A stretch of DNA of 6,856 nt from a virus (Duplodnaviria; Heunggongvirae; Uroviricota; Caudoviricetes): the IMG/VR virus record IMGVR_UViG_2675903433_000039, positions 1-6,856 of that record. One strand, written 5' to 3'. Every line of letters starts with the position of its first letter. Positions within the stretch are counted from its first letter, which is position 1. The notes under the pieces were generated by a model. It ran no database searches. It was not told the origin of the DNA and saw only the letters and a program-made list of their open reading frames with translations. The position numbers and the translations under genes were made by a program. Shown here piece after piece: positions 134 to 6,856 of this stretch.

Positions 134-1204
134 TTATTTGATTTCAATTTTGTCCCACTCCCTGCCTCTGTCATCACGATACTGTGATGCCATGGTGTCC
201 GACTTATGCCCGAGAAGATGTTGAGCAAACTTATCGCTTATCTGCTTCTCATAGAGTCTTGCAGACAAACTGCGCAACTCGTGAAAGGTCGGCGGATCCC
301 CTTCGAAGGAAAGACCTGATGCTTTTCGTGCGCGCATAAAATACCTTGATACTGTGCCGGATGAAAGCGGTTCACGATGAGTAGATGCAATTATGGTTTC
401 TCCGCCAAGAATCTCTTTGCATTTATCAAGTGTTTCCTTCATTGATATCCCGAGAGCATCAACATGCAATGTTGTAGGGATGGCAATTTTTACGCCTGTT
501 TTGCTTTGCTCGACATAAAGATATCCATCTACGATATCAGACCACTTCATTTCGCATAAATCACCAACTCGCTGCCCGGTAACAACAGCCAGCTCCATTG
601 CAAGTCTTAGCCAACATGGTGATGATTCTGCTGCTTGATAAATTTTCAGGTATTCGTCAGCCGTAAGTCTTGATCTCCTTACCTCTGATTTTGCTGCGCG
701 AGTGGCAGCGACCGGGTTTGTTGTTATATGGCCTTCAGCTATTGCCTCTCGGAATGCATCGCTCAGTGTTGATCTGATTAACTTGGCTGACGCCGCCTTG
801 CCCTCGTCTATGTATCCACTGAGCATTGCCGCAATTTCTTTTGTGGTGATGTCTTCAAGTGGAGCATCAGGCAGCCCCCTCCTTATTGCTTTAATTTTGC
901 TCATGTAATTTATGAGAGTCTTCTGCTTGATTCCTCTGCTGGCGAGGATTTTTTCGTAGCGATCAAGCCATGAATGTAACGTAACAGAATTATCACTGTT
1001 GATTCTCGCTGTCAGAGGCTTGTGTTTGTGTCCTGAAAATAACTCAATGTTGGCCTGTATTGCTTCAGTGATTGCTATCCTCCTGTCTCGGCCTAATCCA
1101 AACTCTTTACCCGTCCTTGGGTCCCTGTAGCAGTAATATCCATTGTTTCTTATATAAAGATTAGGGGGTAAATCCCGGCGCTCATGACTTCGCCTTCTTC
1201 CCAT
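134..1204 (-). CDS. int: Tyrosine site-specific integrase, lambda Int
   Basis: 356-aa ORF whose translation (MGRRRSHERRDLPPNLYIRNNGYYCYRDPRTGKEF ... HLLGHKSDTMASQYRDDRGREWDKIEIK) matches lambda Int as I recall it, including the C-terminal catalytic region (HxLR ... Y in SQYRDD). Adjacent to attL and overlapping xis by 23 nt as in lambda. Confidence 0.97.
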   Translation of the reverse strand: MGRRRSHERRDLPPNLYIRNNGYYCYRDPRTGKEFGLGRDRRIAITEAIQANIELFSGHKHKPLTARINSDNSVTLHSWLDRYEKILASRGIKQKTLINYMSKIKAIRRGLPDAPLEDITTKEIAAMLSGYIDEGKAASAKLIRSTLSDAFREAIAEGHITTNPVAATRAAKSEVRRSRLTADEYLKIYQAAESSPCWLRLAMELAVVTGQRVGDLCEMKWSDIVDGYLYVEQSKTGVKIAIPTTLHVDALGISMKETLDKCKEILGGETIIASTHREPLSSGTVSRYFMRARKASGLSFEGDPPTFHELRSLSARLYEKQISDKFAQHLLGHKSDTMASQYRDDRGREWDKIEIK

Positions 1205-1400
1205 TTCTGATCCTCTTCAAAAGGCTACCTGTTACTGGTCGATTTAAGTCAACCTTTACCGCTGATTCGTGGAACAGATACTCTCTTCCATCCTTAACCG
1301 GAGGAGGGAATATCCTGCATTCGCGCACCCATCGACGAACTGTTTCAAGGCTTCTTGGGCGTCGCTGGCGTGCATTCCACTCCTGAAGTGTCAAGTACAT
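1182..1400 (-). CDS. xis: Excisionase, lambda Xis
   Basis: 72-aa ORF MYLTLQEWNARQRRPRSLETVRRWVRECRIFPPPVKDGREYLFHESAVKVDLNRPVTGSLLKRIRNGKKAKS matches lambda Xis from memory. Its 3' end overlaps the int start by 23 nt. Confidence 0.95.
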   Translation of the reverse strand: MYLTLQEWNARQRRPRSLETVRRWVRECRIFPPPVKDGREYLFHESAVKVDLNRPVTGSLLKRIRNGKKAKS

Positions 1401-1521
1401 CGCAAAGTCTCCGCAATTACACGCAAGAAAAGCCGCATTGATGCGGCGATGGTAGGTCTGGATATCATTGAGCCATGAACAGGCCTCATCGAGTGTGAGG
1501 CTGTGGTTAGTCCTTTCGTAA

Positions 1522-1719
1522 CTCGCTGATTCTCCTGTAAGTCTCTGGTGCTTTGTTTCCGTGTATCTTCATTTCGGCGCATGGGCTTGTAGCGCGTGTC
1601 ACGATGAAATCGACCGACGCACCCATAACCTCGACAACAAAGACGCCAGACTTTACCACCTCGAAGGCGTGATCAGGACGCAGGCGATACTGCTGAAGGA
1701 GGGGAAGATTAAGTCATGA
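1522..1719 (+). pseudogene. 3' remnant of a truncated nin-region gene upstream of rusA (no credible start codon)
   Basis: An open frame runs from the stop at 1519-1521 to a TGA at 1717-1719 that overlaps the rusA ATG (ATGA coupling). It reads ...VYLHFGAWACSACHDEIDRRTHNLDNKDARLYHLEGVIRTQAILLKEGKIKS*. It has no ATG and no Shine-Dalgarno at its 5' end, consistent with a gene truncated at a deletion or recombination junction. Identity not established. Confidence 0.3.
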
Positions 1720-2078: not shown

Positions 2079-2263
2079 ACGCCACAATTCAAACGATACC
2101 AGAGCTTCTTATCCAGACACGAGGCAATCAGACCGAAGTGGCGAGGATGCTTTCCTGCGCAAGAGGAACAGTGCTCAAGTACAACCGAGACAGCAAAGGC
2201 GAGCGTCATGTAATAGTTAACGGCGTCCTGATGGTCAAACAGGGCAAGAGGGGAAGACGATGA
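2075..2263 (+). CDS. ninH: NinH-like small DNA-binding protein (nin region)
   Basis: 62-aa ORF MNATIQTIPELLIQTRGNQTEVARMLSCARGTVLKYNRDSKGERHVIVNGVLMVKQGKRGRR resembles lambda NinH as I recall it (..KTIPDML..YGNQTEVARRL.CSRGTV.KY..D..G..H.IVN.VLMV..). Translationally coupled to rusA (ATGA). The C-terminus diverges from lambda NinH just before the low-GC insertion. Confidence 0.75.
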   Translation: MNATIQTIPELLIQTRGNQTEVARMLSCARGTVLKYNRDSKGERHVIVNGVLMVKQGKRGRR

Positions 2264-2391
2264 GACTCGAAAGCGTAGCTAAATTTCATTCGCCAAAAAG
2301 CCCGATGATGAGCGACTCACTACTGGCCACAGTTTATTGGTTTTCGTAACTGAGTCATTTTATTATTTTATTGCAACTTTTAATCTTTTAT

Positions 2392-2428
2392 AGTGCGAAA
2401 TAAATGGAGCTGGCATTCATTTCGCACT
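2392..2428 (+). terminator. Perfect 10-bp inverted repeat (agtgcgaaat / atttcgcact) with a 17-nt loop, followed by a T-rich tract; possible terminator of rightward nin transcription
   Basis: Arms at 2392-2401 and 2419-2428 are exact reverse complements. ttatgtttttgttgg follows on the plus strand. The loop is long for a canonical intrinsic terminator, hence the low confidence. Confidence 0.3.
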
Positions 2429-2474
2429 TTATGTTTTTGTTGGACTTATGTTATTTTGATTGAATTCAATTCAG

Positions 2475-3434
2475 TTAAAAAAAGAAGGTGATTGCTCCAT
2501 TTATAAATGAATAGTCATCCCCTGTCTTGAATTCTGATGTTACTTTATTAAATGCTAGTGTGAAGGCTACAGGTGCATACCCAATTGTTGCGCCAACTTG
2601 ATATTCATCAACAGTTTTGTTTAGCGATACTGTTGTTTGTTTCGTCTGTATTGTTTTTCCTTCGAGAGTATAGTTGCGATTGACATCTCGTCTTTCCATA
2701 CCTGCAAAAATCTTGTATTTGAATCCGCTTGTATCGGACATATGCATTAAACCACGGGGAGCCAGCAGACCAAAGCCATTATCCGAATTGAAGGTTTTAT
2801 CATTACCAATGGCAATGGTTGCGCCATATGCTACATATTGAAATAAGTTTCCAGTAACAGCAGAAACTTCAGGGTATAATCCAACATTAGCACCTAAAAT
2901 ATCCATACTTGGTGTCATGGATAGCATCCCTTTTACAGTATAACCGTAGCGATTCTCTATTTGATCATCCCATGCATGATATTTTTCTGCCCCAATAATC
3001 TCATGAGCTTTATTTTGTACTTTCTGACCGCCTGCGTCGGGGCCAACAACACCTATGTCAGTACCTAATCGATAGCGAATCCAGTCATTCGCAAGGGAGT
3101 TCCATTCAATACCAGTGTGAGTGTATGCACTAAAAGCTCTGTCTCCAGTTACAGCTGTGTTGTGTCTTTTATTACTGCCTGATGGAGAGTAAATATCTTG
3201 CGCAATATGGAGAGATAATTGGCTCGAGTCTGAGATATCGTGGCTATATCCCAGAAATAAGCCTTGTGAGTAATCATCTCTGTTTTCATGTTTATTGCCA
3301 TAAATATCATTAAGTATTGGTTGAAACTTCCCTGCATCATCATTTGCTAATGATAATGCAAGGCTGTTCGCGATAGCTGAACACGTGGTAAATGACAGAG
3401 CAATAAAGACGCCAGCGATGACACTTTTTTTCAT
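2475..3434 (-). CDS. lpxR: Outer-membrane lipid A 3'-O-deacylase LpxR (beta-barrel, signal peptide); prophage accessory gene
   Basis: 319-aa ORF with an N-terminal signal peptide (MKKSVIAGVFIALSFTTCSAIA) and a C-terminal aromatic ...ITFFF typical of outer-membrane beta-barrels. Length and sequence character match Salmonella LpxR and its E. coli O157 prophage orthologue as I recall them. RBS GGAAG lies 10 nt upstream of the ATG. Low GC relative to the flanking phage genes. Confidence 0.7.
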   Translation of the reverse strand: MKKSVIAGVFIALSFTTCSAIANSLALSLANDDAGKFQPILNDIYGNKHENRDDYSQGLFLGYSHDISDSSQLSLHIAQDIYSPSGSNKRHNTAVTGDRAFSAYTHTGIEWNSLANDWIRYRLGTDIGVVGPDAGGQKVQNKAHEIIGAEKYHAWDDQIENRYGYTVKGMLSMTPSMDILGANVGLYPEVSAVTGNLFQYVAYGATIAIGNDKTFNSDNGFGLLAPRGLMHMSDTSGFKYKIFAGMERRDVNRNYTLEGKTIQTKQTTVSLNKTVDEYQVGATIGYAPVAFTLAFNKVTSEFKTGDDYSFINGAITFFF

Positions 3435-3720
3435 ATGTTATTGTCTTCCTTTTTTTTGAATGGTGCGCGTATTTTACATACATGAGTTTGTAATACAAGG
3501 TGCGTAATCAATATGATGTTTTATAATTGCGTGAGACAATTGATTTATTCGTTTTTTATTGCGGTTTTTATTATCTTTTAATGTAACGGTGTTTTTATTA
3601 AGTGTGTTTGCGTGGTGTTTTATGTTTTTTATAATTTTTATTTTATTAAATTTAAAAGCATTAGTAATGGCTATTCTATATAGCAATATAAGAACTGTTA
3701 CAAAAAAAGGGGGGGCAATT
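3435..3720. promoter_or_regulatory. AT-rich, T-tract-phased (probably intrinsically curved) upstream region of lpxR; likely promoter and silencing region
   Basis: Very AT-rich intergenic DNA with T-runs recurring at roughly helical spacing between about 3550 and 3650. Lies directly upstream of the lpxR start (minus strand) and divergent from the Q-like gene. Confidence 0.3.
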
Positions 3721-3909
3721 ACAGGTAGTTATGGATGATGAGTGAAACAGATATTGGAGAACCGGGGAATGAATGATGTCTGAGTCTTATATATCAGAAC
3801 TCCTTCGCTGTCGCTGGGGGCTCCTGTGCTTATGTCGTTTCCCCGATTCGGTTTTGAACGATTACCGAATGTTGAAGAATTATGCCAAAATATAGAAAGG
3901 ATTTACTGC

Positions 3910-4599
3910 ATGAATACCCAATATTTACAGTATGTTCGTGAGCAACTTATGGCAGCTACTGCTGACTTGAACGGAGCAACGAAAGGCCAGCTCGAAGCCT
4001 GGCAGGAGCATGCACAATTTGATACTGGTACATACAAACGAAAGAAGCCGCGCATTCTGGATGTGGTAACTGGCAAGATGATTACGCTGGATAATACGCC
4101 GACTTCCGGTAAGCAGTCGTACGCAAAAGGTTCATCCATTGCTTTGGTCAGCCCGGTTGAATTCTCAACCTCTTCATGGCGCCGCGCGGTTTTGTCTCTC
4201 GATGAACATCAGAAAGCATGGTTGCTTTGGTGTTACAGCGAAAGCGTTCGATGGGGGCATCAGGTCACCATAACGCAATGGGCATGGAGCGAGTTTAAAG
4301 ATTTGTTAAGTAACAGAAAAATTGCAGGTAAGACACTGGATCGCCTGAAGACGTTAATCTGGCTGGCTGCACAGGATGTGAAGAGCGAACTTGCAGGGCG
4401 TGAGGCCTATGAATACCAGACACTGGCATCATTGGTGGGAGTGACAACAAAAAACTGGTCCGAGACATTTACTGAACGCTGGGTTGCAATGAAGCACATT
4501 TTTCTACAGCTTGATAGTGATGCTTTATTGCTTGTGACGAGAACACGTTCAAAACAAAAGGCAGCATTTTTACAGCAAAATATTGCAAAACTGGATTAA
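3910..4599 (+). CDS. Putative late-gene antiterminator Q (large Q-like family of lambdoid prophages); the longest ORF starts at 3826
   Basis: Located between the nin genes and the lysis cassette, where Q sits in lambdoid phages. The ~230-257 aa size is consistent with the large Q variants annotated in E. coli prophages. The ATG at 3910 has a good RBS (aaagga, 8 nt spacer); the upstream in-frame ATG at 3826 has a weaker one. Assignment is by position and general resemblance, not verified by search. Confidence 0.55.
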   Translation: MNTQYLQYVREQLMAATADLNGATKGQLEAWQEHAQFDTGTYKRKKPRILDVVTGKMITLDNTPTSGKQSYAKGSSIALVSPVEFSTSSWRRAVLSLDEHQKAWLLWCYSESVRWGHQVTITQWAWSEFKDLLSNRKIAGKTLDRLKTLIWLAAQDVKSELAGREAYEYQTLASLVGVTTKNWSETFTERWVAMKHIFLQLDSDALLLVTRTRSKQKAAFLQQNIAKLD

Positions 4600-4647
4600 A
4601 AGCCATATACTTCATGCAAATTTGGTATGTTGTAAAAAATGTATAAA

Positions 4648-4671
4648 CCCGCTGCCGAGTGGGTTTTTTTT
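4648..4671 (+). terminator. Rho-independent terminator-like hairpin ~50 bp downstream of the Q-like gene
   Basis: Stem cccgct (4648-4653) / agtggg (4658-4663) with one G-U pair, loop gccg, followed by a run of 8 T (4664-4671). An A-tract upstream (aaaaaatgtataaa) could make it bidirectional. Confidence 0.5.
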
Positions 4672-4743
4672 ATGCCCTGAGTTGTACTTGTACGGTAAAC
4701 ATGCTGGCTGCTATGTAATAGAGTTTTTTTAGCCTGTAACCTC

Positions 4744-4773
4744 TTGACGGCATTGAATTGCTTTTGTTATGAG
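4744..4773 (+). promoter_or_regulatory. Sigma70-like promoter candidate upstream of the membrane-protein gene (possible late promoter pR' or moron promoter)
   Basis: TTGACG (4744-4749), a 17-18 bp spacer, then TTATGA/TATGAG. The spacer contains ATTGAA at the same position as in lambda pR' (TTGACTtATTGAA...) as I recall it. A tandem TTGTAC TTGTAC repeat at 4682-4693 lies just upstream. Confidence 0.3.
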
Positions 4774-4810
4774 TTGTAAGCCAATGTTATCATCTTGTAT
4801 TGGGGTGGTT

Positions 4811-5527
4811 ATGAAGGATGGTGCGCTGCTCAGGAGTTCTTCACTTTTTATTGCCTACATGGGATGCCTTGGATGGGGGAGTGCTTATTTCTATGGATGG
4901 GGTACTTCTTTTTACTACGGCTTCCCATGGTGGATTGTAGGTGCAGGTGTTGATGATGTTGCCAGAAGTTTATTTTTTGCAGTTATCGTCATTGCTATAT
5001 TTCTTATCGGTTGGGGTATTGGTGTTGTATTCTTTTTCGCAGTGAAAAGAAAACATTCTATGCAAGAGCTAAATGTATTTCGCCTTTATTTTGCTGTGGA
5101 ATTATTGTTTGTGCCGGCAATTATTGAGTTTTCTATATTGAGACAGAAGATTCAGGTACCTCTTTTGCTACTGTCAGCAGCGATTGCGCTGGCGGTTACA
5201 ATTTCGATAAGATCTTATGGGCGATTTTTATCGGTATCATGCTTCTATGATAAGCCATTTATAAAAAAACATTTTTTTGAGATTGTGATGATTGCTTTTG
5301 TGGCATATTTTTGGCTTTTTTCATTTCTGACAGGATATTACAAACCACAGTTTAAGAAAGAATATGAAATGATTAATTATAATGATGGTTGGTATTATGT
5401 TCTTGCTCGTTATGATAATTGTCTGGTTTTGTCTACTTCTTTCAATGCAGGTAGTAAAAGGTTTGTCATTTATCAATCAGCACAAGATAAGAATCTTCAG
5501 GTTGATATTGTAAGGACCAGAATTTAA
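4811..5527 (+). CDS. Uncharacterised integral membrane protein (about five predicted TM helices plus a ~60-aa C-terminal soluble domain); low-GC accessory gene
   Basis: Long ORF (maximal 4769-5527; alternative starts at 4769, 4784 and 4811, with gggg/ggtgg upstream of 4811). Hydrophobic segments include FAVIVIAIFLIGWGIGVVFFFAV, LYFAVELLFVPAIIEFSIL, LLLLSAAIALAVTISI and FFEIVMIAFVAYFWLFSFLTGYY, with an aromatic/Gly-rich N-terminal segment (GWGSAYFYGWGTSFYYGFPWW). Codon usage is AT-rich compared with neighbouring phage genes. No family recognised. Confidence 0.7.
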   Translation: MKDGALLRSSSLFIAYMGCLGWGSAYFYGWGTSFYYGFPWWIVGAGVDDVARSLFFAVIVIAIFLIGWGIGVVFFFAVKRKHSMQELNVFRLYFAVELLFVPAIIEFSILRQKIQVPLLLLSAAIALAVTISIRSYGRFLSVSCFYDKPFIKKHFFEIVMIAFVAYFWLFSFLTGYYKPQFKKEYEMINYNDGWYYVLARYDNCLVLSTSFNAGSKRFVIYQSAQDKNLQVDIVRTRI

Positions 5528-5660
5528 TTGGCTGCATAAATAATATTTTAAGTTGCAAGTTGGCTATTCGTAGGAATAGAACCTTAGGCATGCTGAATGC
5601 GTTTTCTGAACATTGTTTTATAAACTGTGTCTGCTTGCTGTTGTGATCCTGCTTTTAGTG

Positions 5661-5771
5661 ATGGTGATGATGGATTTCACCAGCAGGATAATGTTGGTAC
5701 TGACTGATGGCGCTCTGGTCTGCGGCATTGTGGTATTGCTGTGGCCGATGATGAAAGAACAGAATGAATAA
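5661..5771 (+). CDS. Hypothetical 36-aa hydrophobic micro-protein (MVMMDFTSRIMLVLTDGALVCGIVVLLWPMMKEQNE)
   Basis: Short ORF with one predicted TM segment, ending 3 nt before the -35 of the downstream promoter-like element. It has no obvious Shine-Dalgarno and contains the rare AGG-ATA codon pair, so coding status is uncertain. Confidence 0.2.
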   Translation: MVMMDFTSRIMLVLTDGALVCGIVVLLWPMMKEQNE

Positions 5772-5774
5772 TTC

Positions 5775-5803
5775 TTGACTTTTTTGTTTACTGTTTATTA
5801 AAA
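5775..5803 (+). promoter_or_regulatory. Late-promoter-like element (pR' candidate): TTGACT -35, ~17 bp spacer, A/T-rich -10
   Basis: TTGACT at 5775-5780, then a 17-bp spacer and TTAAAA (or TATTAA with a shorter spacer). An intrinsic terminator lies about 175 nt downstream and the holin start about 410 bp beyond that, a geometry like the lambda pR'-tR'-S arrangement as I recall it. Confidence 0.35.
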
Positions 5804-5957
5804 AATCAACCGCATGGTGAATCCTCCTTGGAGGGGCTAAATGATCGAGTTTTAAGGGCACGTAGCGAGTTCTGTTTGATCATTGCAGAACTTAGCGGGA
5901 GGCGCCATGCGTACATCACTAATGTTATTTCCTTCTATCATTTTCCTTGTGAGTTCT

Positions 5958-5984
5958 GGCTGCGCATGGCGCGGCCTTTTTTTT
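5958..5984 (+). terminator. Rho-independent terminator (tR'-like) in the late leader
   Basis: GC-rich stem ggctgcgc (5958-5965) / gcgcggcc (5969-5976) with one G-U pair and a short loop, followed by 8 consecutive T (5977-5984). Confidence 0.55.
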
Positions 5985-6173
5985 ATGACCTGCCACTGGC
6001 AGATGGTCATCCTGTGATTTGATTCCGGTTCCGGCTTTTTAACTCTGTTCCTGTACACGGGAGAAATTCTATGTCGATTAATCGTTATGATATTGGTTAC
6101 AAGAAGTACCACGTATTGTGTTGAGATAGAAAGCATGGTGCCAGAGGTAAATGCAGCAGCATAATAAAAAAGA

Positions 6174-6213
6174 GCCAGCGCAGAAGAGAACGGGTAAAAG
6201 AGTCTGCGCTGGC
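6174..6213. repeat. Perfect 11-bp inverted repeat (gccagcgcaga / tctgcgctggc) with an 18-nt loop, adjacent to a second small GGGG/CCCC hairpin
   Basis: Arms at 6174-6184 and 6203-6213 are exact reverse complements. On the minus strand the structure is followed by ctcttttttattat, so it could act as a minus-strand terminator. ggggatattcccc follows at 6216-6228. Confidence 0.4.
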
Positions 6214-6329
6214 GTGGGGATATTCCCCGTGGAGAAATGATATGTAACACACATCGGGAACCTTTCTATATAAACATTATCATTATTGTCAATCATAACA
6301 GTCAGGTATTATGACGTTTATGCATCAGG

Positions 6330-6360
6330 GCCATCAGGAATTAACTGGTGGCTTTTTATT
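6330..6360 (+). terminator. Terminator-like hairpin 35 bp upstream of the holin start
   Basis: Stem gccatcag (6330-6337) / ctggtggc (6345-6352) with one G-U pair, loop gaattaa, followed by tttttatt (6353-6360). Confidence 0.45.
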
Positions 6361-6392
6361 GTTGTCAGCTTCCGGATAACGGGAGACGGGGT

Positions 6393-6608
6393 ATGTACCA
6401 GATGGAAAAAATAACAACAGGTGTGTCATACACCACGTCAGCGGTGGGGACGGGATACTGGCTACTGCAGTTGCTGGACAAAGTCTCCCCATCCCAGTGG
6501 GTGGCAATAGGCGTATTGGGTAGCCTGGTGTTTGGCTTGCTGACGTATCTGACAAACCTTTATTTCAAGATTAAAGAAGATAAGCGTAAGGCTGCGAGAG
6601 GTGAATAA
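6393..6608 (+). CDS. Phage-21-type holin (pinholin, S21/EssD family) with dual-start motif
   Basis: Translation [71 protein letters not shown] closely resembles S21/EssD as I recall them (..[44 protein letters not shown]). RBS gggaga upstream. Met1 and Met4 form the holin/antiholin dual start. The ORF track extends the frame upstream to 6348, but that start has no RBS. Confidence 0.92.
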
Positions 6609-6856
6609 TGTCGCCATCATTACGCAAGGCTGTTGCTGCTGCTATTGGTGGTGGGGCTGTTGCCATAGCGTCTGTGCTCATCACTGGTCCGAGTGGTGAC
6701 GATGGCCTGGAAGGTGTCAGCTACATACCATACGAAGATATCGTTGGCGTATGGACTGTATGTCACGGACACACCGGAAAAGACATCATTCCCGGTAAAA
6801 CGTATACCAAAGCAGAATGCAAAGCACTCTTGAATAAAGACCTTGCCACTGTCGCC
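6608..6856 (+). CDS. SAR endolysin (phage-21 R-type lysozyme), 5' partial; continues past the window end
   Basis: The ATG at 6608 overlaps the holin stop (TAATG). Translation [83 protein letters not shown] matches the N-terminal signal-anchor-release domain and start of the lysozyme domain of R21/RrrD as I recall them. Open to the end of the window. Confidence 0.9.

Follow-up and report, generated by a model that had tools for sequence, protein, structure and literature searches.

A tciB-like reading frame without its tciA partner in the Q-to-holin interval of a phage 434-related prophage

Results and Discussion

Layout of the locus

The window, by which we mean the whole stretch of 6,856 nt analysed here (IMG/VR record IMGVR_UViG_2675903433_000039, Caudoviricetes), carries in its first part int, xis, a fragment of ybcO, rusA, ninH, LpxR (on the minus strand) and the gene for a Q82-like antiterminator. 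After Q come a terminator, a gene for a 247-aa membrane protein, the open reading frame (ORF) that is the subject of this study, an STnc100-like small RNA with its terminator, and the holin gene, so that the ORF lies in the interval between Q and the lysis genes (Table 1). A tRNA scan of the window found none. Positions 2249–6856 are 99.7% identical to the CP-933K prophage of Escherichia coli O157:H7 EDL933, and positions 2249–6095 are 99.3% identical to phage 434. The region is found in 697 of 5426 complete E. coli genomes, at a median of 6 places per genome.

Table 1. Coordinates of the features discussed in the text
Feature	Coordinates	Strand	Evidence or remark
Q82-like antiterminator	3910..4599	+	PF06323 (E=1.7e-91); phrog_304; 'Q82-like' in phage 434
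Probable Q-dependent PR' (TTGCAA-17-TATACT, 4583-4611) and terminator tR' (4645-4675)	4583..4675	+	Directly after Q
247-aa multi-pass membrane protein	4784..5527 (ORF 4769-5527)	+	phrog_1521; precomputed PF27470 'TfpB'
Non-coding spacer and tciB codons 1-3	5528..5621	+	Unrelated to the flank of tciA-linked copies
In-frame TGA closing the frame above TTG 5613	5607..5609	+	
Full tciB-like ORF, 52 aa, TTG start, TAA stop	5613..5771	+	RefSeq, Pfam, PHROG, alignment with P1 TciB
36-aa ORF: C-terminal 36 codons of the 52-codon frame, from an internal ATG (M17)	5661..5771	+	
Variable C-terminal tail (KEQNE*)	5757..5771	+	A-run indels
Small-RNA promoter: -35 TTGACT (5775-5780), 17-nt spacer, TTAAAA (5798-5803)	5775..5803	+	Conservation and small-RNA expression
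Putative STnc100/PasD-family small RNA	5782..5987	+	Rfam RF02076; intrinsic terminator 5958-5985
Holin	6348..6608		PF04971 (E=2e-32)

A 52-aa frame of the TciB family

The initial annotation described a frame of 36 codons running on the plus strand from ATG 5661 to TAA 5769–5771, with the product MVMMDFTSRIMLVLTDGALVCGIVVLLWPMMKEQNE, and the particulars reported for it are all present: 133 nt separate the stop of the membrane-protein gene (5527) from ATG 5661, the hexamer TTGACT begins 3 nt past the end of the ORF, and a rare AGG-ATA codon pair lies within it. Its boundaries, however, do not hold, since the frame stays open upstream to TTG 5613, the first start-type codon after the in-frame TGA, and since both RefSeq and the phage 434 record annotate the resulting 52-aa product. 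Because the window contains 73 ORFs of at least 30 aa, the length of the ORF alone is within chance; judged from sequence, it is homology alone, and not length, that marks 5613–5771 as a real ORF. RefSeq lists it as a 'DUF3927 family protein' (WP_000499454.1), and in the curated genome of phage 434 the identical gene bears the name TciB. Against Pfam PF13064 its 52-aa product scores 53 bits, where the cut-off is 25 (E=3.4e-14); it also matches phrog_1470, labelled 'TciB-like' (E=2.5e-17), and aligns without gaps to residues 1–48 of phage P1 TciB (P1_gp075) with 46% identity (E=3e-15). RefSeq, Pfam, PHROGs and the phage 434 record thus already contain this ORF, together with its family and name; what is added here is the corrected boundaries, the lost partner, the recombination joint, evidence that selection is relaxed and the reassignment of the adjoining promoter.

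A profile search recovered 548 family clusters, mostly of 51 aa, from Klebsiella, Enterobacter, Citrobacter, Leclercia and Salmonella (Enterobacteriaceae) and from their phages; among species-representative genomes there was a single match, on a misbinned contig, which does not inform taxonomic breadth. Family proteins of 51–54 aa have two hydrophobic segments that flank an invariant DFT, followed by L-x-D-G and W-P motifs, and the residues invariant in the family are M1, K4, L14, D21-F22-T23, L30, D32, L35 and W44-P45. The 52-aa reading has the 50–55 aa length, the invariant residues and both hydrophobic segments, at about residues 5–20 and 26–45; the 36-aa reading is without the first segment. 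The window protein departs from two nearly invariant family positions, with S28 replaced by L and A31 by T.

The 16 residues before M17 are covered by both the family profile and the alignment with P1 TciB, and since the invariant residues include M1, K4 and L14, the 16 residues left out of the 36-aa reading are part of the conserved protein. M17 itself, encoded by ATG 5661, is Val in the Escherichia albertii copies and in canonical family members. On this comparison the conserved unit is a reading of 52 aa with two hydrophobic segments, not one of 36 aa with a single segment, and the description of the product as a single-transmembrane peptide gives way to two hydrophobic segments placed around DFT. 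For the identical EDL933_0862, two transmembrane helices were predicted by PredictProtein (PMC4765031, supplement). AlphaFold2 returns a single continuous helix over residues 2–50 (pLDDT 90), a lone helix that does not discriminate between one and two membrane passes. Public annotation of the locus is inconsistent, with the 52-aa form on about 995 contigs or more, the 36-aa form on 82, and several read-through forms besides.

Our literature search found no experiment on TciB function. The P1 record gives the name TciB 'by homology' only, and citing papers, PMC9603915 among them, trace the tci name to the similarity of TciA to TerB. The label of PHROG 1470, 'inhibition of cell division or resistance to colicin', likewise rests on no experiment that we found.

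The size and hydrophobicity of the 36-aa peptide had suggested a small membrane toxin or modulator. That this is a reading frame for a small hydrophobic membrane protein stands, and it comes from a real and widespread family; the toxin assignment is not supported, as the ORF has no toxin-family match. Searches of Pfam, NCBIfam and PADLOC matched the ORF to no toxin, holin or defence family, and Rfam placed no antisense RNA over 5613–5771 at E up to 1. More broadly, the defence and NCBIfam libraries gave no meaningful match for the ORF, the 247-aa membrane protein or canonical TciA. The Hok, Ldr, TisB and Ibs type I toxins are alike in size, hydrophobicity and prophage location, but differ in that neither a family match nor an antisense RNA is found here and that the partner of the present family is a protein gene, tciA; a type I toxin is therefore not supported, as these searches gave neither a known family nor an antisense antitoxin RNA. 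A holin or antiholin is not supported either, as the ORF matches no holin family and the true holin lies downstream (Table 1). A functional 36-aa single-transmembrane peptide started at ATG 5661, as toxin or modulator, is in our judgement extremely unlikely: in its favour, ATG is preferable to TTG as a start, the 82 contigs mentioned above carry this form, and a further ATG at 5670 (M20) is preceded by a weak Shine-Dalgarno-like GGTGA (-3.9 kcal/mol), but M17 is unconserved even in window-type copies of E. albertii, the family and P1 TciB align across the 16 residues upstream of it, no Shine-Dalgarno sequence precedes ATG 5661, and neither a toxin family nor an Rfam antisense RNA could be assigned.

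Loss of tciA and a recombination joint at the start of tciB

Elsewhere, tciB follows tciA, a TerB-like gene of 141–150 aa whose stop codon overlaps the tciB start codon, and the pair is sometimes trailed by tciC (35 aa). In P1, tciA (TerB-like, 141 aa) is followed directly by tciB (54 aa), and this by tciC (35 aa), with stops and starts that overlap. The N4-like phages Pollock and vB_SalP_TR2 carry the tciA-tciB pair as well, as do the lambdoid LMessi and Klebsiella phage 5 LV-2017; in prophages of Klebsiella and E. coli it is found between Q and the holins. The module tciA-tciB(-tciC) is a dispensable accessory one: P1 tciA, tciB and tciC were non-essential in a CRISPRi screen (PMC10695390), and in one subgroup of P1-like phage-plasmids about half of the members are without the operon (PMC9603915).

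No TerB-like ORF is present in the window by the ORF list or by Pfam, and the start-stop coupling to a TerB-like tciA, which is a matter of module context and not a trait of the protein family, is absent from the window copy. The place of tciA is occupied by the 247-aa membrane-protein gene, which is unrelated to it. When the window DNA is aligned with the copies in Shiga toxin-producing E. coli (STEC) prophages L087 and L084, homology starts at AAACTG (codons 4-5, K4-L5). Upstream of it, the sequence of the other copies is ...CTGTGACGGTA, where a tciA-like frame ends and the tciB GTG overlaps its TGA; the window instead carries, above codon 4, the spacer of the 247-aa membrane-protein gene. 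As homology begins only at AAACTG, we place a recombination joint in tciB codons 1-3 (about 5619–5622), and with the joint there, the native start and the translational coupling are gone.

Comparison with relatives places the window copy more closely. P1 TciB is of a similar length class (54 vs 52 aa) and shares K4, DFT, L-x-D-G and W-P-x-x-K, but P1 tciB sits on the tciA stop and is followed by tciC, within the C1-controlled ban operon, and the window copy is without both neighbours. The canonical pairs in lambdoid phages and prophages of Klebsiella, Enterobacter and E. coli, LMessi and Klebsiella phage 5 being examples, have a TciB of the same family, occupy the same slot between Q and the holin or endolysin genes and have proteins with 40–49% identity; in them tciA is intact, the tciB GTG overlaps the tciA stop and purifying selection on tciB is strong, whereas in the window tciA is absent and selection appears relaxed. 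The closest relatives (67% identity) are the MTVKL-type copies, which start with GTG, of STEC prophages L084–L089. These have the same downstream small-RNA promoter and are likewise without a working tciA: tciA has become a pseudogene in these sister loci, all of which have the same in-frame stop and each a further 5' frameshift or deletion. They differ from the window type in that they keep the ancestral GTG overlapping the stop of the tciA pseudogene, while in the window type the flank is unrelated and the frame begins with TTG.

Translation signals

The initial annotation had remarked on the lack of a clear ribosome-binding site, and this is borne out by the anti-Shine-Dalgarno duplex energies, the best of which is +0.6 kcal/mol before ATG 5661 and +0.4 kcal/mol before TTG 5613, compared with -5.4 for Q, -7.4 for the holin and -11.8 kcal/mol for rusA in the same window. 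By this measure no Shine-Dalgarno sequence precedes either start. No upstream ORF ends within 5528..5621, and because both a Shine-Dalgarno sequence and such an ORF are missing, coupling has been lost at TTG 5613. In the supplements of ribosome-profiling studies of enterohaemorrhagic E. coli (EHEC) we found no footprint data for EDL933_0862, which is present only as a length-matched annotated control with a prediction of two transmembrane helices (PMC4765031).

The adjoining promoter

The TTGACT hexamer beyond the ORF had been taken for part of a late promoter. It is the -35 box of an STnc100/PasD-like small RNA, and the probable PR' lies beside Q; we conclude that TTGACT belongs to a conserved promoter of the small RNA and not to a Q-dependent late promoter. 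The block CTTGA(C/T)TTTTTTGTTTACTGTTTATTA is almost invariant among E. coli and E. albertii copies. A simple promoter scan made no call at 5775..5803, where the -10 box is weak, and the assignment is based on conservation and on expression of the small RNA. The match to RF02076 extends over the full model length (E=1.3e-5) at a sub-threshold 37.7 bits against a gathering score of 47. Copies of STnc100 are transcribed in uninduced EDL933, and one has been confirmed by Northern blot (PMC5331693). A 2026 preprint unites PasD, an Hfq-bound small RNA, and STnc100 in one diverged family, and names Q and LpxR as conserved neighbours of PasD; both are neighbours in the window also.

The TTGACT promoter lies 1.2 kb from Q and is identical behind two types of Q, while the 100 nt proximal to Q differ between the Q types. 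The phage 434 record annotates a terminator at the place of tR'. Loci with a lambda-type Q have TTGACT-TTTTGAATAACTTTGGG-GAAACT in the place of PR', which we take to be close to lambda PR', and their homology with the window resumes at the terminator. Lambda 6S RNA and StxS-type transcripts are similar in having a constitutive promoter, an intrinsic terminator about 200 nt on and a position in the Q-to-lysis interval, but their promoter and terminator are linked to Q, lie directly after it (4583–4675 here) and vary with its type, whereas the TTGACT promoter is separate. This arrangement would place the ORF within the late operon, past PR' and tR', with a separate small-RNA promoter next to it.

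The proximity of this promoter raises another reading, in which the stretch does not code at all but persists either as DNA that precedes the small-RNA promoter or as a structured RNA, the frame being incidental. The promoter block is indeed almost invariant while the ORF varies, and the tail of the ORF overlaps an A/T-rich stretch just before the -35 box; against this, the invariant block begins at the -35 box itself and the DNA of the ORF diverges like the spacer. The predicted RNA fold of 5528–5775 is no better than that of shuffled sequences (z = -0.77), which indicates no special structure and led us to reject a structured RNA there, and homology to a conserved protein family explains the frame without a cis-acting role. 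We give this reading a very slim chance. Much of it overlaps with an explanation of the ORF as a gene remnant, which is taken up below.

Substitution pattern and frame stability

Selection was assessed over codons 4–48 by comparing the number of changed codons with that expected when the substitutions are placed at random (kappa = 3). Canonical tciB genes that accompany an intact tciA are under strong purifying selection (P <=1e-4 in each pair, Table 2). The orphan copies give P = 0.15–0.9, apart from a marginal deficit between the window and E. albertii (P about 0.02–0.04). Substitutions in orphan tciB are close to the neutral expectation and accumulate about as quickly as those in the spacer, amino-acid changes showing no clear shortfall: between the window and E. 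albertii, identity is 82.2% for the tciB core and 79.8% for the non-coding spacer, and 94.9% for the membrane-protein gene. Mosaic recombination may mimic or inflate such rate differences between adjacent segments. Nor is a high dN/dS proof of lost function, because small membrane peptides tolerate many hydrophobic swaps.

Table 2. Changed codons in tciB pairs with and without an intact tciA
Pair	tciA	Observed	Expected	P	Differences by codon position
LMessi-Kp5	intact	2	9.3	<1e-4	2, 0, 12
Pollock-TR2	intact	12	20.4	1e-4	12, 5, 16
LMessi-P1	intact	23	32.6	<1e-4	22, 11, 30
Window-L087	orphan	14	16.2	about 0.2	8, 7, 11
Window-L091	orphan	4	3.5	0.84	0, 1, 4
Window-L093	orphan	6	6.9	0.37	3, 3, 4
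Window-L084	orphan	15	16.0	0.40	8, 6, 11
L084-L087	orphan	5	4.0	0.92	3, 1, 2
Window-E. albertii	orphan	12	16.5	0.02-0.04	6, 8, 12

The upstream gene behaves differently. Its 38 differences between the window and E. albertii fall on codon positions as 5, 3 and 30, and 8 codons are changed where 27.1 are expected, a value that none of 3000 simulations equalled or undercut; the 247-aa membrane-protein gene is under strong purifying selection. This bears on the suggestion, also made at the outset, that the ORF is a partner of the membrane protein. In its favour, the genes are neighbours on one strand, no terminator lies between them, and the same pairing is seen behind two different types of Q and in E. 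albertii. The suggestion nevertheless fared poorly: the partner conserved elsewhere is TciA, absent here; tciB occurs without the membrane-protein gene in L084 and L087; the genes are 85 nt apart and uncoupled, with the joint between their histories inside tciB, in codons 1-3; and the constraint on them is very different. A two-gene membrane module in which the ORF is the functional partner of the 247-aa protein is thus very unlikely.

Conservation of the reading frame had been proposed as a check on the ORF, and the outcome is divided: the core frame is kept, while the tail is found in several frames and the substitutions are near-neutral. An initial scan of IMG/VR returned 80 near-identical copies, and divergence was taken from exact-protein variants and from a DNA scan of IMG/VR loci in which the sample of copies was anchored on the downstream promoter and not on the ORF. 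Of the 114 copies sampled by way of the promoter, 109 retain the core frame. The remaining five have a frameshift in the second hydrophobic segment, at a G-run, and all five are of the MTVKL/GTG-start variant, of which 25 copies were sampled. Among window-type copies the core frame is intact in 88 of 88, which is weak evidence because these copies are nearly clonal. After K48 the tail is read in at least five frames (KEQNE, KKQNE, KRNSLHNA, KKKQPA/KEQPA and a read-through KETACIMLDF...). Neither hydrophobic segment contains a charged residue, although the DNA of the first has diverged by 36%, an outcome to which simulation assigns P=0.008 in one direction and 0.28 in the other.

Origin and possible role of the ORF

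We think it probable that 5613–5771 is an orphaned remnant of tciB, carried as a passenger on the late transcript and translated weakly or not at all. In the lineage of phage 434 and EDL933 CP-933K, recombination would have replaced tciA by the unrelated membrane-protein gene, at a joint that cut into tciB codons 1-3 and removed the native GTG or ATG start together with its coupling. What was left would be a frame of 52 codons that opens with a fortuitous TTG and lacks a ribosome-binding site. Lying below the putative PR' and tR', the ORF would ride on the Q-antiterminated late transcript, and the orphan would drift at about the rate of the spacer, with nearly equal changes at the codon positions and with its last codons free to shift frame. 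Any role that TciB has together with TciA would have gone with the partner, and the product, if translated, would be a 52-aa inner-membrane peptide. Some observations count against a remnant, namely the intact core frame of window-type copies, the marginal deficit relative to E. albertii and the charge-free segments. Genes without a Shine-Dalgarno sequence, and genes initiated at TTG, do exist, which is a further point against reading the ORF as a remnant.

These same observations leave some room for an orphan that still works, in which the late transcript, or read-through from the membrane-protein gene, still yields the 52-aa protein, and this acts in the inner membrane without TciA, for example in lysis timing, superinfection exclusion or tolerance to colicins or phages. 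We regard this as possible but doubtful. The frame is open in nearly all copies, its hydrophobic character is retained, amino-acid changes relative to E. albertii are in marginal deficit, the region is very widespread in STEC (the 697 of 5426 genomes), and the ORF precedes the lysis genes in the late operon. On the other side stand the missing Shine-Dalgarno sequence and the loss of the native coupled start, the near-neutral substitutions with a divergence equal to that of the spacer, the altered residues at nearly invariant positions and the unstable frame of the tail. In addition, phage 434B lives without the region: it swapped about 5.5 kb, including the ORF, for DLP12 sequence and still forms plaques (PMC9119081), so the ORF is dispensable for lytic growth.

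A bolder form of the idea, which we consider unlikely, is that orphan TciB works on its own as a late 52-aa inner-membrane peptide that affects lysis timing, excludes phages or colicins, or modulates a host membrane protein. If it were true, TciA-TciB(-TciC) of P1, N4-like and lambdoid phages would be a system for membrane stress or exclusion with a small subunit able to function by itself.

To return to the remnant that we favour, the ORF carries little weight as a finding, being already annotated and having the look of a leftover in this lineage. Three unrelated groups of phages have conserved the tciA-tciB pair, and it is the intact pair, not the orphan, that makes a sensible target for experiments. 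In the Stx2 prophage of strain Sakai, an STnc100/PasD-type small RNA lies downstream of stx2B, far from PR'; no tciB remnant was found downstream of stx2B in Sakai Sp5, where the small-RNA core alone is shared with the window. The slot between Q and the promoter of the STnc100/PasD-type small RNA varies in its cargo, which may be tciA-tciB, the 247-aa membrane-protein gene with tciB, or, in Stx phages, stx.

Results and Discussion

The window lacks all of the immunity and replication region and is therefore a defective prophage remnant, in which int and xis are followed by an abutting C-terminal fragment of ybcO, and then by rusA and ninH. Directly 3′ of the Q82-like antiterminator gene (Q) lies what is probably PR′, its late promoter; an STnc240 match to the same interval is weak and non-significant (28 bits, E = 0.53). 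In loci with a lambda-type Q, the equivalent position is occupied by a lambda-PR′-like sequence.

Features of the window
Feature	Position	Strand	Remarks
int and xis, then abutting ybcO C-terminal fragment (1561-1719)	within 134-1719		
Probable PR′ of Q82-like antiterminator	4583-4675	+	TTGCAA-17-TATACT, then short leader and terminator
247-aa multi-pass membrane protein	4784-5527	+	phrog_1521; precomputed Pfam PF27470 ‘TfpB’
Small-RNA promoter	5775-5780	+	TTGACT, nearly invariant
STnc100/PasD-family small RNA	5782-5987	+	Rfam match, sub-threshold (37.7 bits vs gathering threshold 47)
132-aa ORF	5852-6250	-	RefSeq hypothetical protein WP_012578864.1
Small ORF within the small RNA	5877-6022	+	MIIAELSGRRHAYITNVISFYHFPCEFWLRMARPFFYDLPLADGHPVI = EDL933_0863
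Intrinsic terminator of STnc100/PasD-type small RNA	5958-5985	+	
Esr41-like weak match	6164-6253	-	32 bits vs gathering 102

The membrane protein gene that follows, preceded among the loci by two different Q types, is under strong purifying selection, with 8 changed codons against 27 expected between the window and E. albertii. As a working accessory gene it is a better candidate than the 36-aa frame downstream (5661-5771), the C-terminal part of a tciB-like ORF.

Changes in tciB and in its usual upstream partner, the TerB-like gene tciA, were seen in other copies. In the STEC prophage loci L084-L089, tciA is a pseudogene 5′ of tciB (about 2090-2504); all copies have in common the in-frame stop CEAS*KAKIEQ, and each additionally carries a 5′ frameshift or 5′ deletion. 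In E. albertii tciB, an internal 7-nt repeat, GCTGGAG, expands and contracts in number (L090, L095; P0030, P0048, P0050, P0066, P0071, P0072), such that the called proteins of 50, 57, 64 and 71 aa differ by 21-nt steps, with P0072 one out-of-frame variant. The GTG-start (MTVKL) tciB of E. coli has, at the place of this repeat, a G6 run that gives rise to frameshifts in 5 of 25 copies. Such changes could mean either that the DNA is drifting and slips here or that the site acts as a phase-variable switch.

The 5′ core of the small RNA, CGCATGGTGAATCC..GGAGGGG, is common to the window and the Sakai Sp5 copy 3′ of stx2B. At the site of its internal ORF, the phage 434 annotation has a longer ‘putative membrane protein’. 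Some STnc100 copies may be translated, since ribosome coverage is high for several in EDL933 (for example STnc100_1, RCV 2.16, and STnc100_10, RCV 3.21; PMC5331693). The WP_012578864.1 ORF, antisense to the small RNA and its terminator, had no significant match in Pfam and none in PHROG, and is probably a spurious call. Esr41 matches are often found near PasD (PasD preprint); most of the one seen here is accounted for by a terminator hairpin in common.

No tRNA genes were found in the window. In phage P1 (L222, 70233-71008), a tRNA-Ile2 gene (CAU, reading ATA) lies directly 3′ of tciC, and the Q-to-lysis interval of Stx phages holds ileZ-argN-argO (L229, Sakai Sp5). The rare AGG-ATA pair of the window ORF consists of exactly the codons decoded by these P1/Stx-type phage tRNAs.
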